Source of the DNA: a virus | Lineage: Duplodnaviria > Heunggongvirae > Uroviricota > Caudoviricetes | DNA length: 64,000 bases | Strand: one strand, 5' to 3' | Virus record (IMG/VR): IMGVR_UViG_3300031993_000018 | Location: 25,614-89,613 of that record | Shown here: one piece after another, positions 46,654 to 61,815 of the stretch | How positions within the stretch are numbered: position 1 is the stretch's first letter | Layout: every line of letters begins with the position of its first letter | Translations under genes and position numbers: made by a program | The notes under the pieces: generated by a model | Seen by the model: only the letters and a program-made list of their open reading frames with translations | Database searches by the model: none | Told to the model about the DNA's origin: nothing

Positions 46654-46657
46654 CAAA

Positions 46658-46745: not shown

Positions 46746-46762
46746 AATAATAAATATAATAT

Positions 46763-46853: not shown

Positions 46854-47034
46854 GTATAACAAATTCCAAAAGTTTGTTATATTTATTAAGGTTTTGTTAT
46901 GTGTTTGTTTTAAGTTAAAGGTTCTAACCGCAACAATTACAAAAAAGATGCTGTTCACATTTTCCAAATGAACCTTGTTTTGTTTCAAACACACAACTTC
47001 AAACCAAATAAACATTTAAATTAATTAAAAAAGT

Positions 47035-47676
47035 ATGAAGAAATTTTTGGCGTTTCTTATGAGCCTTGTGCTCATTTTCGGTTTGAGTTCATGTAACTCT
47101 TGCACAAGAAACCAGACTACTCCTACTGAAGAGACCACACCGGCAGTTGCTGAGTTGGTTGTTGAGAATGTAATCTCTACTGACCGTCAGGCAATGTACC
47201 TTGCACATGGTGGTGACTACAGATGGTATGAGACTGGTGTTCAACTCAAGGACTGGCTTGATGAAGAGAATGATGGTACTATCGATATGGTAGTTAATGT
47301 TTTCCAGGTAATTGAGGAGTATGATTCAACAAGTTTTGATACCTATGTTTACAAGTATCAGCATTTTTCAGATGGTACTGTAAATGAAGATGGTGTTCAT
47401 GGTTTCTGGGTTGAGGATTATCCTCTTGAACAGGAAGTAATTAAGGTAACATTCAAGGAAGCTTACCAGAAGATCCAGGAAGTTAATCTCCCAAGACCTC
47501 ATTCACGTCAGGTTGTATTGAGAAAGCCTATCGGTCCTAAGGATTGCAATCCACAGTGGATATTTGGTAATCTCCATGAGCAGATTTGGGTTGATGCAGT
47601 TACAGGTGAAGTTACTAACAGTAACCCTGCATTTGATGGTCTGAATCTCGGTACTCCACTTGGTGAGTGGCCCTAA
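47035..47676 (+). CDS. lipoprotein of unknown function
   Basis: Signal peptide MKKFLAFLMSLVLIFGLSSC. Confidence 0.8.
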   Translation: MKKFLAFLMSLVLIFGLSSCNSCTRNQTTPTEETTPAVAELVVENVISTDRQAMYLAHGGDYRWYETGVQLKDWLDEENDGTIDMVVNVFQVIEEYDSTSFDTYVYKYQHFSDGTVNEDGVHGFWVEDYPLEQEVIKVTFKEAYQKIQEVNLPRPHSRQVVLRKPIGPKDCNPQWIFGNLHEQIWVDAVTGEVTNSNPAFDGLNLGTPLGEWP

Positions 47677-47763
47677 TAGAAACAATATAGGTTGAATGGT
47701 ACAACCTGAAGTTAAATATCCACAGGGAAAGGGTTAGCCCTGGAAGTTAAAGTCACCCAATAC

Positions 47764-47888
47764 TATGATGTGACAAGGAATAGGTATACTTGCGCCACGA
47801 GATAATATCAGATGGAAGAAGAGGAAGGGTATTCTTCATAAAAGTTGGACTAATTTAGTCAATGTGGGTTCGAGTCCCACTATCATAG
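47764..47888 (+). ncRNA. expanded tRNA-like RNA (125 nt)
   Basis: TATGATG/TATCATA-G acceptor, CAAG/CTTG D stem, GTGGG-TTCGAGT-CCCAC T arm, enlarged centre. Confidence 0.65.
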
Positions 47889-47895
47889 CAAATAT

Positions 47896-47969
47896 CGTGG
47901 GGTGCTAGCAGTGGTCAGCTAACTGGGCTCATAACCCAGAGGTCAGGGGTTCGAATCCCTTCCCCGCTA
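47896..47969 (+). tRNA. tRNA-fMet(CAT)
   Basis: C1 mismatch, GGG/CCC anticodon stem, loop CTCATAA. Confidence 0.9.
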
Positions 47970-47977
47970 CTAAACTT

Positions 47978-48115
47978 GCCAGTATAGGACAGTATATTGG
48001 ACATCTGTAACCTCATGGGAGGTCGCAAGAGAGAATGAAGGTAACATCTTCAACGTACCGGGTTAGTTCAAAGTAGAATACTCTTGTTATGTAAGTTCGA
48101 TTCTTACTATTGGCA
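47978..48115 (+). ncRNA. expanded tRNA-like RNA (138 nt)
   Basis: GCCAGTA/TATTGGC-A acceptor, GTAAG-TTCGATT-CTTAC T arm, several internal hairpins. Confidence 0.65.
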
Positions 48116-48144
48116 CAAAAAAAAATAAAAAAGTTTCAAAAATA

Positions 48145-48196
48145 TTTGGTAGTTTCAAATTTTTTTGTTATCTTTGTAGTGTTGAAAGTTCTTTGA
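48145..48196 (+). promoter_or_regulatory. sigma-A promoter plus boxA-like AGTTCTTTGA (near-identical block at 56651-56699)
   Basis: TTTG-N20-TATCTTTG followed by AGTTCTTTGA at 48187-48196. Confidence 0.8.
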
Positions 48197-48205
48197 TAGT
48201 TTTAA

Positions 48206-49285
48206 ATAAAACAAGGGTGGGTTTCTCATCCTTCCCAAGAAGCCTTCGGGTTGAGGGAGAAAGATAACCAGTGAATACATAAGCTGGGAAAGTCAGTAAG
48301 ATATTGCATAGTATCCCTGGCGGAGGGTTCAAATCCTCCCTGTAAGAAAACCAAGATGGTCAGCATATCCTGGAATGGCAGTACACTGTGAAAGGGGTAT
48401 GCGGAGGCTCTTACCAAGTCTCCTTGAGTGGTAACACTGACAAGAACCATTTTGCTTCCGGACAAAAAGATTACCGGTCTGATTGTCTGAATGACCAAAG
48501 TTTATTGATATCCAAGAGACTACACCAAGTCTTCCTAACAGGTGGTGCTGAGATTCCAGAAATGGTTGGATATTAGAATTAGTAGAATGAGTAACACAGA
48601 GGTGTGTGAAAGTAGAAAGGTGATGTATCTAAACCTCTCAAAAGGAGGCATGATAACAAGGGTAACCTCATCTTTCAATCGGTAAATGCTCAATGATTCA
48701 AATTGGATGTTGACCAAAGACAGAATAATTAGATTATTAAGCAAGCAAAAGTGTTACCCACACTGTAGGACAATACAGTTATGCTTCTGTAAGATGAAGC
48801 CTTATGGATCCCGCAAAGTGAAGTAAGAGTATCGCCAGTATGGACAATGCAAGTGGAGGCATCCACTCAACTCGGCAGAGGTCTTTGGCTTGAAAGCAGC
48901 TATGTAATACAGTGTAGTGACTATGGTAGTCTTGGTGGAAACACCATAAATCCACCTGTATCCGCTTCACCAATAGCAATGTTGGTGTGTGTAAATCTCA
49001 GGCGACTGGGACTTGTCCTGAAAAGGAAGAGAGTAGAGGCGGCGATTGGGGTCAACACTCAGCCCAAATCAATGAATTATTCAGAGTCGGTAACCAGTCC
49101 GGTATGGAAGAGCGAGACTTCCCTGGATAACAAAGTGATATTATAGAGGTACAAATTCTCCTGAATATATAGAACCACTCAGGAGGTTAATTCGAGGCCA
49201 GGGATATTACTGAAACAAATTCCCTTTTGGTTCACAGGGAATGGGAAGAGTGAGTTTGTAATCTGCGAGGTCGGGTTAGTTTTAT
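48206..49285 (+). ncRNA. candidate giant structured ncRNA (~1.08 kb; GOLLD/ROOL-like context)
   Basis: No credible ORF, visibly GC-richer than flanks, many hairpins, ends ATAAAAC/GTTTTAT, lies between a promoter/boxA and tRNA-Asp. Confidence 0.55.
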
Positions 49286-49295
49286 CTCTTCAAAT

Positions 49296-49369
49296 GGTGC
49301 GTTGGTGAAGTTGGTTATCATGCCACCCTGTCACGGTGGAGTTCACGGGTTCGAGTCCCGTACGCACCG
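49296..49369 (+). tRNA. tRNA-Asp(GTC)
   Basis: Loop CTGTCAC, G73. Confidence 0.95.
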
Positions 49370-49531
49370 CACATAAATATTATGTAAAGAACCATACCGC
49401 AATTTTAAACAAATTTCATTTTGATTGAAGAAACCATTGGTTCTTGTTTCGTTTCTTTGTTTAGAAAAACAAAGTGGCAGAGACTGGTGGAAACACCCCT
49501 CTTGTGAGTGGTAATCTCACATACAAAAACT

Positions 49532-49614
49532 TGCCGGCTATACCCTGGAGGTAAAGGTGTCACAGGCCTATGCATGGGCTGTTTGCAGTACTGGTTCGAA
49601 TCCAGTCTGGGTAG
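49532..49614 (+). ncRNA. non-canonical tRNA-like RNA
   Basis: T arm ACTGG-TTCGAAT-CCAGT, extended D stem ATACC/GGTGT, long central hairpin. Confidence 0.5.
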
Positions 49615-49667
49615 CAAATAAAAATGAAAATTGAATTTACATAAATAACTTATAAAGATTAAAAATT

Positions 49668-49884
49668 ATGATGACATTGCATACACATATTATGTTTATT
49701 GCGGGCAAGCCAGGTTGTTATCGTTTTTGGGAACAGAAGCAACTCGGACCTAAAGGTGTGTGGGTATGTCACCAGGATAAATAAGGATTAAACCAGGATA
49801 GGAAAGAAGGTACAGGAAATCCAACAAATATCAATAGAGACATCTCACACAAATCCAAAAAAAGATTTATGTGAGATTTTTTTT
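49668..49884 (+). promoter_or_regulatory. second leader peptide (49668-49784, MMTLHTHIMFIAGKPGCYRFWEQKQLGPKGVWVCHQDK) with antiterminator/terminator
   Basis: GTGTGGGTATGTC (49758-49770) pairs with GACATCTCACAC (49839-49850), which overlaps the terminator at 49842-49884; CATAAATA at 49640. Confidence 0.65.
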
Positions 49885-49892
49885 ATTAACAC

Positions 49893-49967
49893 TGGGTAGT
49901 ACGGTAATTGGTTCACCGGCTGCATTTGGGATGCAGACATATGCGAGTTCGAGTCTCGTCTACCCAA
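49893..49967 (+). tRNA. tRNA-Pro(TGG)
   Basis: Loop TTTGGGA. Confidence 0.88.
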
Positions 49968-49992
49968 CAAATATACAAAACAAAATAAGATT

Positions 49993-50238
49993 ATGGAGAC
50001 ACTCAAACAGATTGTGAAGGGAAGTGCAAAGTTGGAATGCATGAGGAGTGGTGGTGTCGCAGAATACATCATCACATCAGAGACAGGAAAAAGATATGTA
50101 TTGGACATAGACCTGTCAGACAAGGTGGACTGTGGAGAGAGTGCTTCATTTATGCCATACTATGAGAGAGCAATAATCCTGATGCGATGGATTCGCAGAG
50201 CAATGGAGAAGGGTGAATTGATAGAGTTAAATTCATAA
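49993..50238 (+). CDS. hypothetical protein
   Basis: 81-aa ORF with A-rich leader. Confidence 0.7.
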   Translation: METLKQIVKGSAKLECMRSGGVAEYIITSETGKRYVLDIDLSDKVDCGESASFMPYYERAIILMRWIRRAMEKGELIELNS

Positions 50239-50397
50239 ACACATCCGAGATGATCATAGGATGTGGGTTGGGAAGATGAGGATATGTCCGAAAAATTGCA
50301 TAAAGTAGGATGTATTTAGGTAGCGAGCCCCTCCCTGGTAGCCAAACAGGTAGTTTAAAGTGCTTAAGAACAGACCAATCATTGAATTATTAGATAT

Positions 50398-50472
50398 GCC
50401 GGGTTCTACTAATTGGAATAGGTACCCTGATTTTCAATCAGTGCAATATGGGTTCGAGTCCCATACCCGGTA
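50398..50472 (+). tRNA. tRNA-Glu(TTC)
   Basis: Loop TTTTCAA. Confidence 0.85.
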
Positions 50473-50477
50473 CAAAT

Positions 50478-50560
50478 GCGGATGTGGTGTAATGGTAGCC
50501 ACACTTGGTTCAGAGCTAAGCGGCCGAAAGGCCATATGGGTTCGAGTCCCTTCATCCGCA
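50478..50560 (+). tRNA. tRNA-Leu(CAG)
   Basis: Class II, loop TTCAGAG. Confidence 0.92.
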
Positions 50561-50565
50561 CACAT

Positions 50566-50639
50566 TGGGGGATCATCTAATAGAGTAAGGATACCACTCT
50601 GATACAGTGGAAATCCGGGTTCAAATCCCGGCCTCCCAA
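50566..50639 (+). tRNA. tRNA(GAT) on a Gln/Glu-like body
   Basis: U1:A72 TGGGGGA acceptor, TCATCTAAT D region, loop CTGATAC. Confidence 0.7.
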
Positions 50640-50673
50640 CAAAAGAAAGTTCTTTGACATATTGTACACATTT

Positions 50674-50749
50674 GGGTCTGTGGCAGAGATGGTCTATGCG
50701 CTGGACTGAAAATCCAGAGAAGGAGGTTCGAGTCCTCCCGGACCCACCA
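50674..50749 (+). tRNA. tRNA-Phe(GAA)
   Basis: Loop CTGAAAA, encoded CCA. Confidence 0.93.
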
Positions 50750-50957
50750 AGATTTGGGAAAAGGTTCTTGCATTGATGAAAGTAAATGACACCAGACACC
50801 TGATCAGTGAGGAAGTGTTGTTGAAATCGTCTAAAGTTGAGATGGGGAAAGTGTCATCAGTACTAGTCAAATGATGGGATGGAACTCAAGGAGACATATA
50901 CTCTGCCTGGCGTGGGAGTCAGGAGGTTCATCAGCAAGTAAAGTGGAATCTTGACCT

Positions 50958-51041
50958 GTGGGAGTGGCGTAACTGGTAGCCGCGTCGGTCTAAGAAGCCG
51001 ATCCCAGAAATGGGGTGAGAGTTCGAGTCTCTCTTTCCACA
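50958..51041 (+). tRNA. tRNA-Leu(AAG)
   Basis: Class II, loop CTAAGAA (A34). Confidence 0.88.
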
Positions 51042-51047
51042 CAATAT

Positions 51048-51130
51048 TGGTCCCGGCATCATAGTAGATGTCATGGAAGCTGCCTGATTCAGCAGGACTG
51101 AACAGTGGGGTTCGATACCCTGGGGACCAT
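51048..51130 (+). ncRNA. non-canonical tRNA-like RNA
   Basis: TGGTCCC/GGGACCA acceptor, 5-bp D stem, 8-nt central loop CTGATTCA. Confidence 0.5.
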
Positions 51131-51135
51131 CAAAT

Positions 51136-51258
51136 GTATATGTGAAGCAGATAGGATGTGCTACTACAAGAATTAGTAATCATTTGGATATTGCATACAT
51201 ATGTTCAGTAGAGATGAAAAGGATGTGGACTATGTGAGTTCGAATCTCATCATATACA
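51136..51258 (+). ncRNA. expanded tRNA-like RNA (123 nt)
   Basis: GTATATG/CATATAC-A acceptor, GTGAG-TTCGAAT-CTCAT T arm. Confidence 0.65.
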
Positions 51259-51263
51259 TAAAT

Positions 51264-51338
51264 GCTCCCGTAGCTGAGTTGGTTCAAAGCACCTGTCTCT
51301 TAAACAGGGGATCCTGGGTTCGAGTCCCAGTGGGAGTA
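51264..51338 (+). tRNA. tRNA-Lys(CTT)
   Basis: Loop CTCTTAA. Confidence 0.95.
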
Positions 51339-51348
51339 CAAAACAACT

Positions 51349-51637
51349 GGGGCACAGAGGAGATAAATCGGCTGGAAGCCAGCATTCTATGAAGTCATGA
51401 ATTCATAAAGTGTACTCTGTGTGAGGGTTTTTACCAGAGATTGCATCATGCAATTGATGAATGGGAGTTTCCCTTTTAAGTTCGAATCCACAGTGCTCCA
51501 CAAATGCCGGCTTATCACAGTATATAGGTGACTGTAGCCGCCCCGTACAGGCGGGTCTGGCCAACCGAAAGTGTACAGCTCGAGACAATGTATATGAGTA
51601 GAAGTCAGATATGGATGGTTCGATTCCTCCGATGGCA
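51349..51637 (+). ncRNA. two degenerate expanded tRNA-like RNAs (51349-51500, 51506-51637)
   Basis: GGGGCAC/GTGCTCC-A and GCC../..GGC-A ends, each preceded by a GTTCGA T-loop motif; T stems imperfect. Confidence 0.5.
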
Positions 51638-51867
51638 CAAAGTTTGTTATATTTTAATAAAGGGTTCTTTATGACAGTTTGAACCTTAGATGTTAATAAC
51701 TGTTAGTAGTCCTTTGCATCTTTATCCTACTATATCTTATGAAGATGTTTTAAGCCCAAAGTACACGGGAACGAAGATGGGATCTGCCTCTTAACAATGC
51801 ATACTGAATCCTCCAAAACGTAGGTTGGCACAGTTAGACCTCTGGGGTTATTCTAAAAGGTCATTAT

Positions 51868-51940
51868 GGACCATGTAGTGTAACGGCGAGCATATCACAT
51901 CTGCACTGTGATGGAGGGGTTCGAATCCCACATGTGTCCA
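51868..51940 (+). tRNA. atypical tRNA, loop TCTGCAC (Ala TGC, or shifted Cys GCA)
   Basis: D, anticodon and T arms present; bulged acceptor stem. Confidence 0.55.
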
Positions 51941-52215
51941 CAAATGAATATTTGAGGTTCCAGAAGGCTTCCGTAATGTGGCATAGTCGGAGGAGACACT
52001 GGAGATGGATAAACATGGAAATTCGGGCTACCGGGTGAGGCAGTGTTAGACGAGGAGGCTTGCTGGAATAAGCAGTCCGGGTAGAATATTCATCACAAAA
52101 CCACAGAGTGTCCAGAGTGTCGAAGCATTGGTTGGTATGATGCTTTAAAAGTTTAAACTCTACTCCGAAAGTGGGCGACATATTCGAGACTATACTCTGT
52201 GTGACAAAACTTTTC

Positions 52216-52291
52216 TATGGTATCTTCTAGTGGTCCAGGAAGTCCGAGGCTAACAGCGGTAGGGACAGAGGTTCGAATCCTCTTACCATAG
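52216..52291 (+). tRNA. Gln-like tRNA with enlarged anticodon region containing CTA
   Basis: U1:A72, G73, TCTTCTAGTGGTCCAGGA D arm; three extra nt in the anticodon arm. Confidence 0.55.
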
Positions 52292-52313
52292 CAAATTAAA
52301 TAATTCATATAAT

Positions 52314-53021
52314 ATGAAATTAGGAAATTTAAAGTATCATTATTTTTATAAGATAACCAACAATATAAATGGTCATTTTTATTATGGTGTTCATAACACA
52401 AATAATTTAGATGATGGTTATATGGGTAGTGGTTTAAAATTACAAGAAGCATATAAAAAATATGGTATTGAAAACTTCACTAAAGAAATATTAAAGTTCT
52501 TTGACACATCTGAAGATGCATTTAAATATGAAAGTGAGATTGTTACAATTGATTTAATAAAGTCAAAGAAATGTTATAATATTCAACTTGGTGGTAAATC
52601 CATTAACACTTCTGGTTTAATTGTTGTTATTGATAAAAATAATATAAAAACATTAATACCAAAAGATGATGACAAAATAATAAAAGGTAATGTGAAAATT
52701 TATTCTCCTTTAAAAAATAAATTGGTTGTAAAATATAAAAATGATAATGATTATTTTTTAATTAATAGTGATGAATATGATTCTAACATTTATGAAACAA
52801 GTTGGACAAATAGACATCACACACAAGAATCAAAAAGTAAAATAAGAAAGACTTTAACACCTCAAAATTCTAATAATTCACACATATGGATTAATAAAAA
52901 TGGGATAGTTAAATATTTAGATAAAAGAAAATTAGATGAATATTTAAATGATGGATGGACATTGGGAAGAAGTGGATATAAACCAAGAAAGGGATGTAGA
53001 GGTAAGAAAATAGAAATATAA
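52314..53021 (+). CDS. free-standing GIY-YIG (Seg-like) homing endonuclease, paralog of 45188
   Basis: YFYKITNNINGHFYYGVH...DDGYMGSG; very AT-rich. Confidence 0.88.
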   Translation: MKLGNLKYHYFYKITNNINGHFYYGVHNTNNLDDGYMGSGLKLQEAYKKYGIENFTKEILKFFDTSEDAFKYESEIVTIDLIKSKKCYNIQLGGKSINTSGLIVVIDKNNIKTLIPKDDDKIIKGNVKIYSPLKNKLVVKYKNDNDYFLINSDEYDSNIYETSWTNRHHTQESKSKIRKTLTPQNSNNSHIWINKNGIVKYLDKRKLDEYLNDGWTLGRSGYKPRKGCRGKKIEI

Positions 53022-53024
53022 TTT

Positions 53025-53111
53025 GGGAAGGTTGAGCAAATGGTTGAGCTCATCGGTCTGTAAAACCGACACTATGAAACACTGTGGGTTCGAGTCCCAC
53101 CCTTCCCACCA
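53025..53111 (+). tRNA. tRNA-Tyr(GTA)
   Basis: Class II, encoded CCA. Confidence 0.93.
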
Positions 53112-53114
53112 AAT

Positions 53115-53185
53115 GCAGGATTAGTTTAATGGTAGAATGTCAGCCCTCCAAGCTGAATGTGGGAGTTCGATTCTCCTATCCTGCT
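53115..53185 (+). tRNA. tRNA-Gly(TCC), C33 variant
   Basis: Loop CCTCCAA, U73. Confidence 0.88.
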
Positions 53186-53191
53186 CTAAAT

Positions 53192-53266
53192 ACCGATGTA
53201 GCTCAGTTGGTCCAGAGCAGTGGACTCATATTCCACAGGTCATTGGTTCGATTCCAATCATCGGTA
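53192..53266 (+). tRNA. tRNA-Met(CAT)
   Basis: Loop CTCATAT. Confidence 0.92.
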
Positions 53267-53281
53267 CAATAAATATTATAT

Positions 53282-53368
53282 AGGTCGGTGGCCGAGTGGT
53301 CGAAGGCAGCGGTCTCCAAAACCGCCAAGATGGTAACATCTTCGAGGGTTCGAATCCTTCCCGGCCTG
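53282..53368 (+). tRNA. tRNA(CCA, Trp anticodon) with a Ser-like class II body
   Basis: Loop CTCCAAA; long variable arm AAGATG-GTAA-CATCTT; G73. Confidence 0.85.
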
Positions 53369-53378
53369 CTTGAGGAAT

Positions 53379-53450
53379 TGGACTATTGTGTAATGGTTAG
53401 CACATCAGATTTTGGATCTGACAGTCTGGGTTCGAATCCCGGTAGTCCAG
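53379..53450 (+). tRNA. tRNA-Gln(TTG)
   Basis: U1:A72, loop TTTTGGA, G73. Confidence 0.95.
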
Positions 53451-53550
53451 CAAAGTAAGAGTGTGGAAATAACTTGTAACTCAAGTAGAGAGTTTCCAGT
53501 AAATGGGTGGTGAGAAGAGTAATGAACTTACAATTTAGCCTTACTGAAAT

Positions 53551-53621
53551 TGGGATATAGTATAAGGGTAGTACGTTTGACTCTGGATCAAAAGGTGTGG
53601 GTTCGAATCCTGCTATCCCAG
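53551..53621 (+). tRNA. tRNA-Gln(CTG)
   Basis: U1:A72, loop CTCTGGA, G73. Confidence 0.93.
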
Positions 53622-53627
53622 CAAAAT

Positions 53628-53698
53628 GTCGGGGTGGCCGAGGGGCTAGGCAGCGGTCTGCAAAACCGCCTACGCAGGTTCGAATCCTGTCTCCGACT
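53628..53698 (+). tRNA. tRNA-Cys(GCA)
   Basis: Loop CTGCAAA, U73. Confidence 0.95.
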
Positions 53699-53770
53699 CT
53701 AAACTCTGGAGCATACCGCCAGTACGGAAGTGGAAAAGAGGTACTGCTCTGTTTCCTACCAGAGTTAAAT

Positions 53771-53842
53771 GTCCCTGTGGTGTAATGGACAGCATACCAG
53801 ACTACGGATCTGTTGGAGAGGGTTCGAGTCCTTCCAGGGATA
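53771..53842 (+). tRNA. tRNA-Arg(ACG)
   Basis: Loop CTACGGA. Confidence 0.92.
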
Positions 53843-53876
53843 CTAAAATTTTGTTATATTTAATGTATAACATCTT

Positions 53877-53948
53877 GCCGGGGTAGCTCAGTGGTAGAGT
53901 ACATCTTTGGTAAGGATGAGGTCAAGAGTTCAAATCTCTTCTTCGGCT
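53877..53948 (+). tRNA. tRNA-Thr(GGT)
   Basis: Loop TTGGTAA. Confidence 0.95.
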
Positions 53949-53953
53949 CAAAT

Positions 53954-54025
53954 GCAGTGTTCGTATAATGGTTATTATATAGCCTTGCCAAGGCTGAGAT
54001 GGGAGTTCGATTCTCCTACACTGCT
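53954..54025 (+). tRNA. tRNA-Gly(GCC)
   Basis: Loop TTGCCAA. Confidence 0.92.
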
Positions 54026-54026
54026 C

Positions 54027-54213
54027 AAAGTATACATAAAACGTTAATCCCGAGAATGATAGGTTACCACAAGGCAGTAGGTGTAAAAGAATAATTACTG
54101 TTTAACAAGTCTGCAACAGGGATCCCGGTAGTAATACTGAGTGTTCAGCGAAATCTGAAATAGAGTGATAACTAAAGGTGAAAGTCCTTACAAACGTCCT
54201 ATCTGTATACTTT
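54027..54213 (+). ncRNA. unidentified ~187-nt structured RNA
   Basis: Perfect 10-bp terminal helix AAAGTATACA/TGTATACTTT between two tRNAs. Confidence 0.55.
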
Positions 54214-54218
54214 TATAT

Positions 54219-54295
54219 GGTGATGGTGGCCGAGTGGTATAGGCGCATGCCTGTGGAGCATGTTTACGTGGGTTCGATCCCCACCCTTCACCCCA
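54219..54295 (+). tRNA. tRNA-His(GTG)
   Basis: G-1:C73, loop CTGTGGA, encoded CCA. Confidence 0.95.
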
Positions 54296-54308
54296 AATTA
54301 CAAAAGTT

Positions 54309-54632
54309 ATGGACAAAGATTTTAAAAAGAAGTTCCTGACAGACACTGATGAGACAGGAAGGTTTATTGTAAAGTCATTGAAGACAGGTAAGACCTACTT
54401 TGTTGAACCGGTGAACCAAGGTGTAAGAACAAACTGGGGAGACCTGGATCCAGTCACAAGAAAGATGACCGGAAGTTATGGAGAGAAATACAAGGGAAGT
54501 GTAACTCCTGATGAGTCTCTCATAACAGAGGAAAATGGATTTGATAAGGTATATACATTAAGTCCTGGTGAATCTCCTCTTTCTTACATTGATATGATTG
54601 ATGATGAGTATTTTAAAAAGATGAATAAATGA
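54309..54632 (+). CDS. hypothetical protein (followed by a 41-aa membrane peptide at 54629-54754)
   Basis: ORF track plus hand translation. Confidence 0.75.
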   Translation: MDKDFKKKFLTDTDETGRFIVKSLKTGKTYFVEPVNQGVRTNWGDLDPVTRKMTGSYGEKYKGSVTPDESLITEENGFDKVYTLSPGESPLSYIDMIDDEYFKKMNK

Positions 54633-54750
54633 AACCGAGAATTTACAGAAGACACAGGGATGACACTAATCTCAGGACTAATATGAACATCATATTGGCA
54701 ATTGGTGGAACTATAATTTTATTGGGTGTATTTTATTTGATGTTCATAAT

Positions 54751-55689
54751 ATGAGTAAAAGGATATTGGTGACCGGTGGTGCTGGATTCATAGGTTCAAA
54801 CCTTTGTAAGAAACTTGTGAATGAAGGTAATGATGTCATATGTCTGGACAACTTCTATACAGGAAGAAAGGACAATATATATGAACTGATAGGTCAGAAG
54901 AATTTTGAACTTGTTAGACATGATGTATGTCAGCCTTACCTGGCGGAAGTTGATGAGATATACAACCTTGCATGTCCCGCTTCTCCGATACATTACCAGA
55001 ATGACCCCATCCAGACAACAAAGACATCTGTCCTGGGTGCATATCATATGCTGGGATTGGCAAGGAGGACAAAGGCAAAAATACTCCAGGCATCTACAAG
55101 TGAGGTCTATGGTGACCCGACTGTCCATCCACAGACAGAAGATTACTGGGGAAATGTGAACTGTCACGGTTTCAGGTCCTGTTATGATGAAGGAAAAAGA
55201 TGTGCCGAATCATTGTTCTTTGACTACAACCGTATGCATGGGATAAGGATAAAGGTGATAAGGATATTCAACACCTATGGTCCCAATATGGCAGTCAATG
55301 ATGGAAGGGTGATTTCAAACTTCATCAACCAGGCACTCAATGATGAGGATATCACGATATATGGTGACGGAAGTCAGACCAGGTCTTTCCAGTACATTGA
55401 TGACCTGATAAATGGTATGACAAAGATGATGAATACTGATGATTCATTCACAGGTCCGGTCAATATAGGAAACCCTCAGGAATATACAGTACTGGAACTG
55501 GCAAACAAGGTGATAGACCTGACAGGTTCAAAGAGCAAGATAGTATTCTGTCCTCTGCCTTTTGATGATCCAAAGAAGAGGAAACCGGATATAACACTGG
55601 CAAAGAAGGAATTAGACTGGTCACCAAAGGTTGATGTTGATGATGGGTTGATTAAGACAATAGAATATTTCAAGTCATTGAGAAAGTAA
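54751..55689 (+). CDS. UDP-glucuronate decarboxylase (UDP-xylose synthase), extended SDR
   Basis: [44 protein letters not shown]. Confidence 0.92.
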
Positions 55690-55695
55690 TATTCT

Positions 55696-55777
55696 GGGAG
55701 TGTCGCATAGTGGCAATTGCAAGGGTCTGTAACACCCTCGCCTTCGGGCTTCGGAGGTTCGAGTCCTCCCGCTCCCA
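55696..55777 (+). tRNA. tRNA-Tyr(GTA)
   Basis: Class II, loop CTGTAAC. Confidence 0.93.
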
Positions 55778-55793
55778 CAAAAACTTTAAGGTT

Positions 55794-56126
55794 ATGAAAA
55801 AGACAGTTAAGTTTTTCAAACAGGATGACAAATGGTATGCAGACATTCCAAACCACACACTGGATGAAAATGAGATGGTGATGGGTTCTGATATTATGTT
55901 GGAGATGTTTGCGAACGGTGCGAAGGAACTCACATTAACATTGTCTGATGATGATATGTCTGATGCATTCATAACATTGAGAAGAAAGGAACATGATGAG
56001 GATGGTGCCTGGTACACAGTGTTCGGGACAGACTTTGAGGATGTTTGGATATGTAATGTGACACATGATGTCTTCGGTGAACACCCTGAATGTATCTACA
56101 TCAGTAAGATAACTCAACATAAATAA
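55794..56126 (+). CDS. hypothetical protein
   Basis: MKKTVKFFKQDDKWYADIP...; start moved because the track ORF overlaps tRNA-Tyr. Confidence 0.75.
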   Translation: MKKTVKFFKQDDKWYADIPNHTLDENEMVMGSDIMLEMFANGAKELTLTLSDDDMSDAFITLRRKEHDEDGAWYTVFGTDFEDVWICNVTHDVFGEHPECIYISKITQHK

Positions 56127-56213
56127 GGGGATGTGCTGAAACTGGCAGCCAGGCCAGACTTAGGATCTGGTGTCCGGAAGGACGTATGGGTTCGAGTCCC
56201 TTCATCCCTACCA
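56127..56213 (+). tRNA. tRNA-Leu(TAG)
   Basis: Class II, encoded CCA. Confidence 0.95.
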
Positions 56214-56290
56214 CAGTCTTTCGGGACTTTAAAGAGTTGTAGAAATACAATCCATCGAGGTCAGTCCAGAACCAGTTAATCTGGACATTT

Positions 56291-56373
56291 GCGGCAGTGG
56301 CGGAATGGTAGACGCGCCACTTTGAGGGGGTGGTCCGGGCAACCGGGTATGGGTTCGAGTCCCATCTGCCGCA
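56291..56373 (+). tRNA. tRNA-Leu(GAG)
   Basis: Class II, loop TTGAGGG. Confidence 0.93.
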
Positions 56374-56474
56374 CAATAAAAAGGGTGGGCCAATCGGAAT
56401 AAGGCAGGGTAAGTCTCCGGTTCTTCTTTGATGAGGGTGCACCAGTAATCAAAGTTTCTTAAATTACCCAACCC

Positions 56475-56548
56475 GGGCAAGTAACTCAGTTGGTTAGAGT
56501 ACCACTCTGATACAGTGGTGGTCGTAGGTTCGAGTCCTACCTTGCCCA
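56475..56548 (+). tRNA. tRNA-Ile(GAT)
   Basis: Loop CTGATAC. Confidence 0.93.
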
Positions 56549-56556
56549 CAACAAAT

Positions 56557-56631
56557 GCCCCTATCATACTAATAGGTTTAGGTGGCCACCCTCTCAAGGT
56601 GGAGATACGGGTTCGAATCCCGTTGGGGGTA
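56557..56631 (+). tRNA. tRNA-Glu(CTC)
   Basis: Loop CTCTCAA. Confidence 0.9.
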
Positions 56632-56890
56632 CAAAAAATATTCAAAAATATTTGGTAGTTTCAAATTTTTTTGTTATCTTTGTACTGTAAGTTCATTGAA
56701 ATATTGATGCACATATAGGAACAACAAGATGGGGTACCTATAAGTCTCACATAAGGATTCTAGATTGAGGGGGTGTGAGAGAAGGGTACAAATAATGTTA
56801 AAGAGGATTCCCGACCCTTAATAGGAGGAGAAAAGCGCTCTCTCCGATCCTCTGACAACAGTGACTACGGAAATCTGTTGTGTTCTTTAT

Positions 56891-56973
56891 GCCCAGGTGG
56901 GGGAATGGTAGACCCAGCTGTCTCAAAAGCAGCCGACCATCCGGTCATGTGAGTTCGAGTCTCACCCTGGGCA
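56891..56973 (+). tRNA. tRNA-Leu(CAA)
   Basis: Class II, loop CTCAAAA. Confidence 0.95.
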
Positions 56974-57587
56974 CTTTGATGAAAATCCTAGGTGGGTGGT
57001 ATCTATAGCAGACTCCTTTAAAATGGGGAAGGAGGAAAGATACCGAATACTGGACAGGTGGTTTCGTCTAGCATCCTGGTGAGGGGGAATGTCCTCACAA
57101 GACCACTTGAGAATGGTGACTACGGAATTCCATTTGTTTTCATTTTTTATGGTGGGGTTATCAAACTTAACCACCCGCATCCTTGAAGAGAATGTGTTGC
57201 CGAGCCGTGTCAAGTTTATCTTGTATCCGGAGGAGTGAAACTTCCAAGTTGACAGGTTATTGCACTCGCCTGTCAATTATTACTGAACCCACCAGTAAGA
57301 CTGTTAAGCAGTATATCAGTATGGTACATGGGAGTTGTGCATGAGCTGGCTGAAGAGTAGTTTCCGGATATGGTGTTGAAACCCGGGGAAAATGAAAAGT
57401 AAGTCAATAGCAATAGGGAACCGGTGGAGTTACTGTGACTTTGTAATTTTGTCCATTACAGAACCGGGGAAATAATGGAACACCAATGTGGCTAAAATGG
57501 TAGGGATTCACAAAAATCAGTGAAGGTGGCCACACACCTGGACAATCACTGATTACGAAAATTATTTTTTATAAATATATAACAGTT

Positions 57588-57659
57588 GGCGCCCTCGTCT
57601 ATCGGTTAGGACACGAGATTTTCATTCTCGGAAGAGGGGTTCGATTCCCCTGGGCGCTA
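57588..57659 (+). tRNA. tRNA-Glu(TTC)
   Basis: Loop TTTTCAT. Confidence 0.93.
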
Positions 57660-57719
57660 CTAATCAACCGGAAGGTTGTTTACTATCCAGTCAATAATTC
57701 ATGAATAAACCTGGGTAGA

Positions 57720-57793
57720 GGTCTGATAGCTCAGATGGTGAGAGTACCACACTGATACTGTGGAGGTCACAAGTTCAAGTCTTGTTCAGACTA
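57720..57793 (+). tRNA. tRNA-Ile(GAT)
   Basis: Loop CTGATAC. Confidence 0.92.
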
Positions 57794-57803
57794 CGAAACA
57801 TAT

Positions 57804-57903
57804 CGCGGGGGAGTGAAACGGATAAGAACATCCCACAAGTTTGTTCAAAGATCATTACAGGCTCATAACCTGTAGATACTGGCTTCGACTGCCAGACCCG
57901 CAA
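57804..57903 (+). tRNA. fMet-like tRNA(CAT) with a ~28-nt hairpin insertion in the D loop
   Basis: CGCGGG/CCCGCA with C1:A72, loop CTCATAA, insert GAACA..TGTTC between GTGA and TCAT. Confidence 0.7.
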
Positions 57904-57907
57904 CAAA

Positions 57908-58065
57908 GACCTTTATGAAGCAAGTGGAATTCGGTATTTCAACCTATGCAAGTTATCAGAGTCAGTGTACAATGAATCTGAAGAACAGTATAAAAGTCAA
58001 TACTGATAAGTCTTCTGTGGAAATTCAAGCCCAGTTGTCCTGGTTCGAGCCCAGGTAAAGGTCCA
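57908..58065 (+). ncRNA. expanded tRNA-like RNA with G-1:C73 (158 nt)
   Basis: GACCTTTA/TAAAGGTC-CA, T arm CCTGG-TTCGAGC-CCAGG. Confidence 0.65.
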
Positions 58066-58087
58066 TATACAACAAAAAACAACAAAC

Positions 58088-58231
58088 ATGGCAACAGTTA
58101 AAAACACATCATTCTCAAGAAGAGAAGTCAAGCATAAGAAACGCCCTGGAATCATTTCCAAGTGTAAGTCTTCAAAGAACAAGACATCAAAACACTATGT
58201 GAAACCATACAGAGGTCAGGGCAGACCATAA
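58088..58231 (+). CDS. 47-aa highly basic peptide
   Basis: MATVKNTSFSRREVKHKKRPGIISKCKSSKNKTSKHYVKPYRGQGRP*; A-rich leader; not in the track. Confidence 0.7.
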   Translation: MATVKNTSFSRREVKHKKRPGIISKCKSSKNKTSKHYVKPYRGQGRP

Positions 58232-58238
58232 AAACCTT

Positions 58239-58320
58239 CGGGGTGTAACCGGTAGTTGGTTTCCGACCAGTTTTGGGAACTGGGCCGCAAGGCGCGCAGG
58301 TTCGAGTCCTGTTACCCCGA
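58239..58320 (+). tRNA. tRNA-Pro(TGG) with a long variable arm
   Basis: C1:G72, loop TTTGGGA, extra hairpin GCC-GCAA-GGC. Confidence 0.85.
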
Positions 58321-58323
58321 CAA

Positions 58324-58505
58324 CACCTGGTGGACAAATGGTAAAGTCGCCCTATTGGGTAGGGAGGTGTGTAATAGAAGTTTTCCGGCAGTGAGGAGTA
58401 ATGGAGTCGCGATCCACCGAAGGCACGGGAACGAGAATAAGCACAGGCCTGGATGTATTCGCGATGCTGAAGGGTGAATGGGGGTTCAATTCCCCTTCGA
58501 GGTGA
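58324..58505 (+). ncRNA. expanded tRNA-like RNA (182 nt) with a ~110-nt variable-region insert
   Basis: CACCTGG/CGAGGTG-A, canonical D arm GAC-AAATGGTAAA-GTC, CCCTA-TTGGG-TAGGG mini anticodon arm, GGGGG-TTCAATT-CCCCT T arm. Confidence 0.7.
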
Positions 58506-58812
58506 CAAAGATTGTTGTGGTGTTGCAGAACTTTAAAAGGAACAACACAGGTGTAGAGGGAAACTTTAATGGGTAATTTTTTTTACCAGCTAACCTTCAG
58601 AGACCTCACCAAGGATGATGCTTCATCATGGAGGGCACTCCAAGATGACAAAAAGATAGTTACAGTGAGAGTCTTATTGAGAACTGTTCGACCCAGGAGG
58701 AGTGATGTTTTAGAGCATGTTTGACTGTACGGGGATAAACGGTGGCGACCGGTGAGTTTTTCTGGGCACTTCTCAGAACAAAAACAAAGAAAATTAACAA
58801 AACAGTCTTTAA

Positions 58813-58887
58813 GGGTGTTTAGCGCAGCTGGTTCAGAGCATCTCGTTTACACCGAGAAGGTCGGGGGTTCGAATCCCTCATCACCCA
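58813..58887 (+). tRNA. tRNA-Val(TAC)
   Basis: Loop TTTACAC. Confidence 0.93.
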
Positions 58888-59025
58888 CAAAGAGATACTT
58901 GAAGAAGCTACGGGTGTAAGATACTAGTAAAGATTACACATAGGGGCCTACCATATTGTAGTTTATGTGTTCTAAAACATCAAGTAACAACATAGAGGAC
59001 TTCGAATTAATCTATGGCTCTTAAT

Positions 59026-59097
59026 GCCGATGTAGCTCAGTGGCAGAGCAGGGGTTTTGTAAACCTCAGGTCGAGATCTCGGTATTCTCCATCGGCT
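59026..59097 (+). tRNA. tRNA-Thr(TGT) with a non-canonical T loop (CTCGGTA)
   Basis: Rest of the cloverleaf is normal; loop TTTGTAA. Confidence 0.75.
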
Positions 59098-59155
59098 CAA
59101 AATTATTGAACTTGAACTTTCATAAATACTTTATAAGGATTATAAAAGTTCAACT

Positions 59156-59749
59156 ATGACAAACTGGGAAGATAGAAAAGATACCCTGGTAGATTTGATA
59201 CAGGTTCAGAAATTACCATATGAACAGATTGGTAGAATGTTCAATTGTTCAGGTAATAACATCAAGAAAGTTGCAAAAAAACTTGGTATTGAATTAGTCC
59301 AGAAAAGAAAGATAAATGAAAGTGAAACTTTCAATAAAGGAAAAGGTAATAAGGGTATCTGTTTAAACTGTGGATGTGAATATAACATTTACAGGTCTTC
59401 AAAAGGAAAGTTCTGCTCAAACAAATGTCAGGGAGAGTATGAATATAAAGAGTTCATTGAAAAATGGAAAAAGGGTGAAGAATCTGGATTGACAGGAGAA
59501 TATGGAATTTCTCGTCACATAAGGAGATACCTTTTTAATAAGTACAAATGTAGTTGTCAAATTTGTGGATGGAGTGAAGTAAATCCATTTACTGGTAATG
59601 TTCCTTTGGAAATTCATCATATAGATGGCAATTACGTAAATAATAAAGAGGAAAATTTACAACTCCTTTGTCCAAATCATCACTCACTGACTGAAACCTT
59701 TAAGAACCATAATAAAAATGGTAGAAAAGGTAGAAGGAAGTACAATTGA
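59156..59749 (+). CDS. free-standing HNH homing endonuclease
   Basis: CLNC..CSNKC Zn motif; CQICG..LEIHHIDGN..NN..NLQLLCPNHH; CATAAATA at 59121. Confidence 0.92.
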   Translation: MTNWEDRKDTLVDLIQVQKLPYEQIGRMFNCSGNNIKKVAKKLGIELVQKRKINESETFNKGKGNKGICLNCGCEYNIYRSSKGKFCSNKCQGEYEYKEFIEKWKKGEESGLTGEYGISRHIRRYLFNKYKCSCQICGWSEVNPFTGNVPLEIHHIDGNYVNNKEENLQLLCPNHHSLTETFKNHNKNGRKGRRKYN

Positions 59750-59755
59750 TAATTT

Positions 59756-59910
59756 GCCCCAGTGGCTCAATGGTAGAGCAACGCACTTGTATAGATGGCG
59801 AAATTCCATTTTAAAAACTATGACTACATCAAAAGGCTCATAGGAGTGAGGGTTCGATTCCCTTATGTAGTCCAATGCGTAGGTTGCTGGTTCGATTCCG
59901 GCCTGGGGCT
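59756..59910 (+). tRNA. tRNA-Thr(TGT) interrupted by an 83-nt insert (59791-59873) containing a nested mini tRNA-like element (59822-59872)
   Basis: Exons join into GCCCCAG..ACGCA-CTTGT|AA-TGCGT..CTGGGGC-T. Confidence 0.85.
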
Positions 59911-59968
59911 CAAGAAAAAGGATTTTGGCCTGTTAGTTAAAATCCATATAAAATAAAAAGTCAAATTT

Positions 59969-60589
59969 ATGTCAAAATTAATGAAACCAGAAGAGAGGGA
60001 TCAGCAGATCAAGGATTTGATGATTACCATTAGAAGGAACACACAGGGTTCCAAATGTATTGAGATCTTTGAAAATCTTTTGAATGAGGTTGAGGACAAA
60101 GAGTTTGTTGATACTGTTATAGCAGACACTCACAAATTCATCTCTGAGTTCTCAAGACTATGTAAGGATGTGGACAATATGAAGAATCTGGATTATATCT
60201 CCAGAATCCTCACACATGAGTTCATACTTCCCCACAAGTATTTCCGTAAGTCACAGAATATGGCGAAGGTATACTTGCTGATGTATGACAGACTTGTGAA
60301 GATATATTCACATCCTGTATATGATGTTGAGAAAGGTATCATCCTTTCCAATGTCAACTTCCTGGGTACAATTCACCACAAGGAAGACCTCACTGCAAAT
60401 GATGTGATTGCAGTGTTCAAGTATTTCGGTGACCTTTCAGGACTTTCCGTTGACCAGGTAAAGGAAAAGAAGGAAGAAGCCAGGATGGTCATCTTACTCT
60501 ACAATTATCTGCCTGCCATAGTGAAGGCACTTATTCAGACCAAGAGGAGAAGCTTGAATCTTGACAAGAACTCCAAGAAGTTTGAATAA
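59969..60589 (+). CDS. hypothetical protein
   Basis: 206-aa ORF. Confidence 0.75.
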   Translation: MSKLMKPEERDQQIKDLMITIRRNTQGSKCIEIFENLLNEVEDKEFVDTVIADTHKFISEFSRLCKDVDNMKNLDYISRILTHEFILPHKYFRKSQNMAKVYLLMYDRLVKIYSHPVYDVEKGIILSNVNFLGTIHHKEDLTANDVIAVFKYFGDLSGLSVDQVKEKKEEARMVILLYNYLPAIVKALIQTKRRSLNLDKNSKKFE

Positions 60590-60617
60590 ATAACAGAACT
60601 AACAGGCTGGAATCTTT

Positions 60618-60694
60618 GGGGGATTAGCTCAGCTGACTAGAGCACCTGATTTGCACTCAGGAGGTCATGGGTTTGAATCCCATATCCTCCACCA
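60618..60694 (+). tRNA. tRNA-Ala(TGC)
   Basis: G3:U70, loop TTTGCAC, encoded CCA. Confidence 0.95.
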
Positions 60695-60744
60695 AAAAAG
60701 GACAATTATTTGCTGGGATACTGTGAGTGTCCCTTTTTTATTCA

Positions 60745-61815
60745 ATGAAAAGAATATTTATATTCATTGTATTTTTATTCCTTGGTATGACATCACTGCA
60801 ATCGCAGAATGTCGTATCATCTACTGTTGAGTTTTTATTCAACACAGATGAGTTTGTACAGAATGAGAAATATGACAATTTCATAAACACAATTGTACCT
60901 TATATCAACAGCAACAAGGATAATATTGAGAGTATCCTGTTGGTGGGATCTGCATCCCCAGAAGGAAACAAGGAATGGAATGACTACCTTGCTGTCACCA
61001 GGGCCGAAAAGGTACACTCATATTTTATGGACAGTATTCCAAGACAGAAGGTCAATGTCATCAATGACTATGACCTATTCCTGGAAAAGACAGGTTATGA
61101 TGAGAAGAACTGGAAAAGGTTGAGGGCAACTTATATTGAAATCCAACTCAAAAAAGCACCTGAAACCATAACCCTGTTTGACACCATATATATAAAGGAG
61201 ATGGATACAATCTACCAGTGCTGTGGCACTGATACTGTATATATCAAACAGGAACCGGAAAGGATACCTCTTCTTGCAGTAAAGACAAATCTCCTTTCTG
61301 ATGTTCTCATCACCCCCAGTATTCAAGCTGAACTCTACACACATCTCTGGGGACTCTCACTTGAATTTGACTACACATTCCCCTGGTATCACAATGATGA
61401 TGTATATTGGTATTACCAGATCCTCAATGGTACTGTTGGAATAAGGAAGTACTTGAACAATGAGTACTATGGTCATTACTTTGGAATATATGGAAACACT
61501 TTCACATATGACATCTGTTTTGATGCAGATAATGGATACCAGGGTGAGGGTAATGGAATCAGTATAGGTTATGGATATGTGTTCAGGAGTAAGAAACATC
61601 CCAAACTGAAGTTTGAACCTTATGTCAGGTTGGGTTATCTGTATTCAAGATTTGACACATATCATGCCTCTAATCCCTGGGATGGAAAGTATTACTACAA
61701 CTGGCATAAGAAGGCCAGTGAATTTACTCCCAGGAGACTTGAACTTAATTATTTCGGACCTACTGCAATAGGTTTCAATATAACATACGACTTGATATGG
61801 TTAAGAAAGTATTAG
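60745..61815 (+). CDS. DUF3575-like outer-membrane protein with OmpA-like N-terminal part
   Basis: Signal peptide; GSASPEG...N..LA..RA; AVKTNLL...W..beta-barrel; YFGPT C-terminus. Confidence 0.78.
   Translation: MKRIFIFIVFLFLGMTSLQSQNVVSSTVEFLFNTDEFVQNEKYDNFINTIVPYINSNKDNIESILLVGSASPEGNKEWNDYLAVTRAEKVHSYFMDSIPRQKVNVINDYDLFLEKTGYDEKNWKRLRATYIEIQLKKAPETITLFDTIYIKEMDTIYQCCGTDTVYIKQEPERIPLLAVKTNLLSDVLITPSIQAELYTHLWGLSLEFDYTFPWYHNDDVYWYYQILNGTVGIRKYLNNEYYGHYFGIYGNTFTYDICFDADNGYQGEGNGISIGYGYVFRSKKHPKLKFEPYVRLGYLYSRFDTYHASNPWDGKYYYNWHKKASEFTPRRLELNYFGPTAIGFNITYDLIWLRKY

Follow-up and report, generated by a model that had tools for sequence, protein, structure and literature searches.

Introns without a known counterpart in the Rfam collection have been described in transfer RNA (tRNA) genes of Lak megaphages, where these 'enigmatic introns' occur as presence/absence variants and gave no Rfam match (Devoto et al. 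2019, Nat Microbiol, PMC6784885), and the intron of the Lak Thr(TGT) gene was noted to be one that 'may encode a tRNA' (PMC6784885). According to a jumbo-phage survey of 2026, such introns are common in phages with alternative genetic codes and 'could encode another tRNA' (PMC13037316). A literature search yielded no paper giving a mechanism for these introns. Here, an 83-nucleotide (nt) insert in the anticodon loop of a tRNA-Thr(UGU) gene from a rumen megaphage was analysed, together with a sibling insert in a tRNA-Asn(GUU) gene and related inserts of other phages. The window, i.e. the whole stretch of DNA under analysis, comprises 64,000 nt (positions 25,614 to 89,613 of IMG/VR record IMGVR_UViG_3300031993_000018), and positions given without a locus name refer to it. 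Its source contig, G000, is a 153.6-kb fragment (64% complete according to CheckV; 38% GC) of an uncultured bovine-rumen phage, for which the standard genetic code fits, with stop-to-stop frames spanning 84% of the contig. No close relative was found in the deposited phage collection; the nearest relatives are the IMG/VR contigs G001 and G002 (412 and 345 kb, both 94% complete).

The phenomenon is already published, and the present locus, residing in a standard-code rumen phage, belongs to a Lak-like sub-type that has a 5′ module and ends in N73-C. Judged from its sequence, the insert is very probably an intervening sequence of the Lak-megaphage type that is under functional constraint. Its removal from the precursor by a protein-dependent cut-and-ligate process is the reading preferred here, with a probability of about 0.5. 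Splicing of tRNAs is not known in bacteria and their phages besides that of self-splicing group I introns.

The insert of the window and the Lak introns share their position in the anticodon loop of a phage tRNA and the order of their parts, namely an N-T-A start, a short hairpin, an A/U-rich linker and a tRNA-like unit with a T arm. Four Lak intron sequences, read by us, likewise place exon 2 directly after N73-C74 of the nested unit (tRNA numbering), show presence/absence polymorphism and include a Thr(TGT) case. Some 5′ modules in the Lak table and those of loci L022 and L046 are near-identical, and the module at L008:1129 resembles that of Lak Phe. Differences concern the carrier and the sequence: the phage clade studied here has a GC content of 38%, a rumen source and the standard code, whereas Lak phages have 26% GC, and the Thr insert of the window cannot be aligned to the Lak Thr intron. 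The Lak papers contain neither a junction rule nor covariation nor a mechanism, nor do they demonstrate splicing.

The interrupted gene lies on the plus strand. Exon 1 (59756-59790, 35 nt) comprises the acceptor strand GCCCCAG, the D arm, the anticodon-stem strand ACGCA and the loop residues C32, U33, U34, G35 and U36; exon 2 (59874-59910, 37 nt) continues with A37 and A38, followed by TGCGT, the variable loop, the T arm, the acceptor strand CTGGGGC and the discriminator T73. Behind exon 2, the genomic trailer is CA, as for other tRNA genes of this array. Between the exons, the insert (59791-59873, 83 nt, plus strand) starts with a 31-nt 5′ module (59791-59821), consisting of ATA, a hairpin (59793-59811; AGATGG, 7-nt loop, CCATTT) and a 10-nt A/U-rich linker (59812-59821). 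The module is followed, on the same strand, by a nested minihelix, the 5′ half of which (59822-59847) contains G-1 at 59822, the acceptor 5′ strand ACTACAT (59823-59829) and a variable centre of 18 nt with a small hairpin (59830-59847). The 3′ half (59848-59873) is made up of the T arm (59848-59864; GAGGG-TTCGATT-CCCTT), the acceptor strand ATGTAGT (59865-59871), C73 at 59872, which pairs with G-1, and C74 at 59873 as the last base of the insert. This layout, with ATA, hairpin, mini tRNA-like unit and final C, had been described in the initial annotation and was found again on re-reading of the sequence. The annotation had also stated that removal of 59791-59873 yields a perfect tRNA-Thr(TGT), with which the ARAGORN call on the joined exons agrees (72-nt tRNA-Thr(tgt), perfect cloverleaf); the insert alone was not called as a tRNA by ARAGORN. 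In the minimum-free-energy fold of the precursor, all arms of the outer tRNA were kept and the insert folded as a separate domain containing the nested unit. The shuffle z value of the precursor fold (−2.2) is modest on its own, and since the z-scores of precursor and insert are only about −2, the case rests on comparison rather than on folding energy.

Identity and junction of the Thr gene were settled by external alleles. Excision of 83 nt allows several registers at the DNA level. A single-nucleotide ambiguity caused by A (36/37 or 37/38) had been pointed out initially and is present, yet its extent was understated, because the intron mode of ARAGORN shifts the same 83 nt so that a Gly(tcc) gene results. 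The Gly-UCC identity was rejected, as insert-free alleles read CTTGTAA, i.e. Thr(TGT). One such allele, L176:6723-6795 from a tRNA array of another rumen phage, is identical to the joined exons at 68 of 72 positions (94%), reads CTTGTAA and differs only by four compensatory acceptor-stem changes; in BLAST, its match to the window splits exactly at 59791 and 59874. The D arm, anticodon arm and variable loop were moreover found uninterrupted in 44 viral and 36 metagenome stretches, all with CTTGTAA. In 31 of the 36 metagenome copies (L174-L209, e.g. L178; contigs of up to 1.2 Mb) it is one and the same gene followed by tRNA-Tyr, evidently, from its setting, the chromosomal Thr(UGU) gene of a bacterium. 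This bacterial gene is identical to the phage product at 64 of 72 positions, including a 45-nt core without any difference, so that short reads across a 'spliced' junction could not be assigned to the phage. In the Thr case, the isotype could not be resolved by comparing the tRNA body with those of further tRNAs in these phages. For the residual 1-nt choice between 36/37 and 37/38, the junction rule set out below favours 36/37. As a side observation, the bacterial Thr(UGU)-Tyr gene pair offers a lead to the host lineage.

The sibling gene, tRNA-Asn(GUU) (46461-46653, plus strand), is split at 35/36 by an insert of 121 nt (46495-46615), in which ATAAGGAGT is followed by a hairpin with the loop ACCGGAAC and by a nested class II tRNA-like unit ending in T73-C74; the latter (46524-46615) was called 'Ser-aga' by ARAGORN. 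For its ortholog, L008:4507, an allele lacking the insert was found at L006:6074 (score 70 over the 75-nt product), and by this unambiguous allele the boundary of the Asn insert is proven at the level of DNA. Further cases were gathered from the tRNA arrays of the relatives, from a structural pattern scan of IMG/VR combined with a strict parser, from a relaxed parser and from the four Lak introns (Devoto Table S6). Apart from the four Lak introns, 16 instances were obtained; they interrupt Thr, Asn, Phe, Lys, Leu and Ile2 tRNA genes on at least 11, or about a dozen, contigs of large phages (99-448 kb), and nine of the instances were found without C74 as a criterion (two each in the window, L002 and L008, one in L006, as well as L022:424 and L030:5005).

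In all 16 instances, including the nine that were not selected for C74, N73-C74 of the nested unit directly precedes exon 2; judged by eye, the four Lak introns agree with this. The insert starts with NTA in 15 of 16, with TA at +2 and +3 in this register only, and positions −1 and 73 of the nested unit pair in 16/16. The 5′ module measures 24-31 nt in 15 of the 16, the outlier being L079, for which 31 nt is given; nearly all inserts measure 79-141 nt as a whole, with a single outlier at 167 nt. Within the anticodon loop the 5′ boundary floats, being located at 34/35 in L002 Thr and Ile2, at 35/36 in Asn and some Phe genes and at 36/37 in Thr, Leu and Lys genes. Removal restores a 7-nt loop with the cognate anticodon in every case, across six tRNA types. 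Thus the Thr and Asn inserts, rightly described at the outset as unrelated in sequence and built to the same plan, as is also seen in the comparison of their nested units, do belong to a wider set: the functional class of 'tRNA-like-element introns' then proposed is borne out by the common layout and junction rule of the 16 instances and the four Lak introns.

For the Lak 'enigmatic introns', which have been without explanation since 2019, this locus and its relatives now give concrete rules: a 3′ site one unpaired C past the minihelix, matching the CCA-less tRNA ends of the clade, N|UA at the 5′ site, two layouts of the 5′ module, and selection on acceptor and T arm only. With these rules automatic annotations can be corrected. 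Besides the Gly(TCC) call of ARAGORN that becomes Thr(TGT), the Arg(CCT) called by ARAGORN at L006:2205 becomes Ile2(CAT), whereupon exon 1 matches E. coli tRNA-Ile at 91% from the first base; L008:1129 is read as Leu(TAA) on a class II body, and the Lak 'Tyr(GTA)', which has a class I body and G73, as Asn(GTT).

The 5′ module is specific to the inserts, with conserved motifs in its loop, and was never found upstream of ordinary tRNA genes. Its two layouts differ in that the linker is located on opposite sides of the hairpin; the loop reads ACCGRAAC in Asn, Thr and Ile2 inserts and AGTAAA in Phe, Leu and Thr inserts. Three apparent features were tried and given up. The −1:73 pair was rejected as a special mark of nested units, since it is Watson-Crick in 65% of ordinary tRNA genes and merely enriched in inserts. 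A closing helix AUAG/CUAU, by which the two splice sites would be brought side by side, is present in the Thr insert of the window, has no counterpart in L053 or L030 and was dropped, and an extended 5′ hairpin taking in U36 and AUA proved not to be general. Separately, it was observed that type-b inserts (46495-46503, L008:4544-4552, L002:3825-3834 and 4827-4835, L006:2240-2248) carry, after the 5′ junction, a 9-nt spacer NTA-MRGAKT that resembles the 3′ end of the 5′ strand of the anticodon stem. By eye, it could pair with exon 2 positions 37-42 and rival the anticodon stem, with 4-5 of 6 pairs each, which may represent a conformational switch or an insertion scar.

On two other phage contigs, at L053:5773-5936 (minus strand) and L030:3871-4022, orthologs of the interrupted Thr(UGU) gene carry a homologous insert; a pattern scan for other orthologs of the Thr insert returned these two only. 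The three sequences were subjected to RNAalifold, which gave 45 consensus pairs, seven of them with double compensatory changes. Five of the seven belong to the outer tRNA (acceptor stem 3, anticodon stem 1, T stem 1) and span both exons; the other two lie in the nested unit, at acceptor pair 5:68 (C:G to U:A) and T-stem pair 51:63 (G:C to A:U). The centre of the nested unit differs wholly in sequence and length (15-28 nt) among the three. In L002, the paralogs covary in the 5′ hairpin. Because compensatory changes are found around an unconserved centre, the alignment indicates that selection acts on the whole outer tRNA, including its exon 1:exon 2 pairs, and on the acceptor/T-arm minihelix of the insert.

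The distribution is patchy. In G000, the Thr and Asn genes are interrupted, in G001 only Ile2, and in G002 two Thr genes (by a different insert family, at 34/35), Leu, Asn and, by an unrelated insert of 186 nt, Ser. As related 5′ modules occur in different tRNA types, the comparison indicates that the element moves between genes and between tRNA species. Together with the compensatory changes in nested and outer stems, this describes an insert that appears to be old, constrained and mobile rather than part of a pseudogene. A recent, non-conserved disruption had been named beforehand as the finding that would speak against function; the orthologs instead keep the nested stems by compensation, and insert-free alleles exist. 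The Ser case was viewed separately: L008:4802-5073 is an ortholog of the window's tRNA-Ser(UGA) (46763-46853) and contains its 186-nt insert after U34; this insert ends in G, has no nested T arm and matched no Rfam intron or ribozyme model, and on these features it is of a different kind from the minihelix inserts.

The ends of ordinary tRNA genes give the nested unit its context. C74 is encoded in 107 of 108 ordinary tRNA genes of the phage clade, C75-A76 in few, with A-rich spacers next, and positions −1 and 73 form a Watson-Crick pair in 70/108 (65%). Gene ends at N73-C74 with −1:73 complementarity are an unusual, clade-wide precursor design. This design may, as an observation apart from the inserts, bear on site choice by RNase P or RNase Z, and the N73-C74 ends possibly on dependence upon a CCA-adding enzyme of the phage.

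RNase P and RNase Z leave 5′-phosphate and 3′-hydroxyl ends, which ATP-dependent RNA ligases of the Rnl type seal directly, and T4 Rnl1 seals breaks in the anticodon loop. For recognition by RNase P, RNase Z and the CCA-adding enzyme, nothing more than the acceptor/T-arm minihelix is required. Since the nested units carry the tRNA end signature of the clade and the boundary of exon 2 coincides with it, a 3′ cut by the tRNA 3′-end machinery is proposed. In the preferred cut-and-ligate reading, the minihelix would present the end signature of the clade's ordinary precursor tRNAs to the tRNA 3′-end endonuclease; a host enzyme of the RNase Z type would cut after the unpaired C, the acceptor stem being lengthened by the −1:73 pair, and would leave a 5′-phosphate on exon 2. 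At the 5′ site, the simplest assumption is a second endonucleolytic cut at N|WUA, by a host RNase E/G-like or a phage enzyme. The only marks of this site are N|WUA and the insert-specific module. RNase P cannot account for it, as the nested unit, which RNase P may trim separately, has its first base 24-32 nt further downstream. The resulting 3′-hydroxyl and 5′-phosphate ends, held by the outer tRNA fold, would be sealed by a phage RNA ligase of the Rnl type. The naming of particular enzymes for these steps is doubtful.

Candidate enzymes are encoded by the phages. G000 has two RNA-ligase genes (PF09414), at C1:151433-151921 and C1:115266-115805, and there is a single match in G001, over the cut-off, and a weak one in G002. 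The core of a CCA-adding-type nucleotidyltransferase (PF01743, 92.6 bits) was found at 20031-20420 on the plus strand (G000:C1:45644-46033) in an open frame of 476 amino acids, with homologs in G001 and G002 as well; such an enzyme is needed if tRNA genes end at N73-C74. For the 5′ cut, several routes were set aside by reasoning: with MazF/PemK-type cuts at U|AC exon 1 would retain additional bases, RNase III would need longer hairpins, and exonucleolytic trimming of exon 1 would lack site precision, given a loop portion of variable length (3 to 5 nt) in that exon. As for the arrival of the insert, ends of single-stranded DNA transposons of the IS200/IS605 type were set aside on the ground that there is no common target word.

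Mitochondrial tRNA punctuation and the MALAT1-mascRNA transcript resemble this proposal in that a tRNA-like element is there only to tell RNase P and RNase Z where to cut, and in MALAT1, as in the insert, the tRNA-like unit is closely preceded by a hairpin and an A-rich tract. In those systems the flanks are not rejoined, whereas here they are the halves of another tRNA. A tentative extension of the proposal is a third tRNA-splicing route in bacteria, in which the minihelix recruits end-processing nucleases, the insert module directs the 5′ cut, a phage ligase rejoins the exons and the element moves between anticodon loops, possibly having originated from mis-repair of nuclease-cut tRNAs. If cut-and-ligate removal is true, RNA-repair ligases of phages would gain a routine biosynthetic role beyond counter-defence, and the maturation of interrupted tRNAs would depend on the presence of enzymes of the phage itself.

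Several points weigh against protein-dependent cutting and ligation. The 5′ cut, above all the identity of its nuclease, is the weakest step of the model. RNase Z canonically cuts after N73 and not after N74; the shift to N74 relies on the −1:73 pair, which is common in ordinary tRNA genes and so is consistent with the model, not discriminating. An RNase Z-type gene was searched for in the phages and not found; a host enzyme is assumed for this reason, and the host itself is presumed. The insert-specific 5′ module with its conserved loop motifs might instead reflect a dedicated protein or catalysis by RNA. Contigs of four rumen metatranscriptomes, compared with the region 42000-61000, show that the phage is transcribed; none of them joins or bridges 59790/59874 or 46494/46616, but assembled contigs are unable to show small RNAs, and the result speaks neither for nor against splicing.

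RNA catalysis is the first of the alternatives. The insert would then be a new small self-cleaving or self-splicing RNA, whose catalytic fold is formed by NUA, the 5′ hairpin with an ARUAAA or ACCGRAAC loop, the A-rich linker and the T loop, and whose ends are healed and sealed by Pnk-like kinases, a phosphoesterase and a ligase of the phage. The restriction of the 5′ module to inserts and the recurrence of its loop motifs speak for this, as does the fact that both boundaries are set by the insert and not by the outer tRNA, the 5′ site floating from 34/35 to 36/37. A catalytic fold is, however, hard to reconcile with the very few nucleotides that are invariant across instances, with two layouts of the 5′ module around an unconstrained nested centre, and with conservation limited to generic tRNA features (acceptor, T arm, C74). 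When all Rfam families were searched with the window insert and the related inserts at E ≤ 1, tRNA was the only match and no ribozyme or intron model was hit, including hammerhead, twister, pistol, hatchet and hepatitis delta virus-like models. The explanation is considered improbable.

Similarly improbable is a gene whose insert is neither removed nor its exons rejoined, the tRNA being either disabled by a selfish element or made as halves or as an extended tRNA-like RNA, for instance to lure or soak up (as decoy or sponge) host anticodon nucleases or defence proteins that bind tRNA, or to supply the nested RNA. That metatranscriptome contigs contain no spliced product agrees with it, and nested units can be complete tRNA-like genes, as in the Asn case. 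A tRNA that is nicked or expanded in the anticodon loop cannot decode, and an inactive product would not account for the exact restoration of loop and cognate anticodon in every one of the instances, for the covariation of exon 1:exon 2 stems among the three interrupted orthologs, or for exons that are 94% identical to an uninterrupted phage allele and share the 45-nt core with the bacterial Thr(UGU) gene.

An intron of the archaeal or eukaryal type, cut at its bulge-helix-bulge (BHB) element by the splicing endonuclease and joined by RtcB, is close to refuted by the folds and the gene content. BHB introns (EndA with RtcB or Trl1) share with the proposal the logic of endonuclease and ligase acting on a folded precursor tRNA; the insert likewise interrupts the anticodon loop, and with the junction read as 37/38 it would occupy the canonical position. 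Neither the single-sequence folds nor the consensus folds contain two 3-nt bulges separated by a 4-bp helix, though, and the sibling and related inserts are located unambiguously at other positions (34/35 and 35/36). Genes for the splicing endonuclease (tRNA_int_endo, EndA, PF01974) and RtcB (PF01139) were searched for in G000, G001 and G002 and were absent; bacteria are not known to have EndA. The predicted ends differ as well, being 3′-hydroxyl and 5′-phosphate here rather than cyclic phosphate and 5′-hydroxyl.

That the insert is a degenerate group I intron, or else an artefact of assembly or recombination, can practically be dismissed: group I introns of bacterial, plastid and phage tRNAs do share variable anticodon-loop sites, mobility, patchiness and frequently nearby homing endonucleases with the inserts, and T36 precedes the 5′ junction, but the inserts have no catalytic core, the 83 nt of the window insert are far too few (about 200 nt or more being expected), it ends in C and not in the terminal G, RF00028 gave no match at the gathering score or at E ≤ 1, and the insert family was recovered in three independent assemblies from different samples.

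The neighbouring nuclease raises the question of homing. A free-standing HNH endonuclease gene (59156-59749, plus strand, 197 amino acids; weak Pfam matches to HNH and HNH_3, E ~5e-4) ends 6 nt 5′ of the interrupted Thr gene, which confirms the adjacency remarked on in the initial annotation. Both genes together form a segment of about 815 bp that is absent from L001 and is bounded on both sides by 3′ ends of Thr genes (GGCTCAA). HNH homologs with 46-59% identity are encoded in L003, L030, L006 and L134. In L030, the homolog (57% identical) is located 74 nt downstream of the orthologous interrupted Thr gene, with an interrupted Lys gene further on; in L003, it lies among normal tRNAs, and in L134 about 250 nt upstream of an uninterrupted Thr gene. 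No HNH gene is near the interrupted genes at L053, L002, L008 and L022. Two GIY-YIG (Seg-like) endonuclease genes, each with a weak Pfam match, are located inside the same array, one at 45188-45970, 5′ of the transfer-messenger RNA (tmRNA) and of the interrupted Asn gene, the other at 52314-53021, and weigh against a specific link between HNH gene and insert. From its locations, the HNH family is clearly resident in tRNA arrays and may target Thr genes; a partnership of HNH gene and insert in the sense of collaborative homing is possible and weakly indicated.

A second Thr(UGU) gene at 59026-59097 (plus strand) had been noted as the sole other Thr(TGT) gene and as having an aberrant T loop, both of which hold within the 153.6-kb contig at its 64% completeness. 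It was detected by the Rfam tRNA model (50.3 bits) and not called by ARAGORN. Its T loop reads CTCGGTA versus TTCRANN, with C54 and G58 replacing U54 and A58, and its T stem has 4 bp. The counterpart in L001 (~3893-3965) is kept, with a compensatory acceptor-stem change from A:T to G:C, and because of this conservation the gene is probably functional, a variant rather than a copy in decay.

Over 40 tRNA genes make up the 19-kb array in the window, together with a permuted tmRNA and several genes for homing endonucleases. At 42314-42390, a tRNA was called with Rfam (46 bits) that ARAGORN reports only as Tyr(gta) with a 4-nt 'intron', i.e. with an over-long anticodon loop. Elsewhere, a series of tRNA-like elements was observed at L009:1000-6300 (G003), their acceptor and T arms being good and their middles irregular; they have the word CTTACAAT in common and are unrelated to the minihelix inserts. 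A GOLLD-like RNA is located at 48615-49065 (Rfam RF02032, 77 bits, E 7e-19, under the gathering score of 150) within an expressed block of about 48340-49072, and has homologs at L008:6718-7167 and L006:7890-8347. In all four rumen metatranscriptomes, this block had by far the deepest contig coverage (~100-1900).

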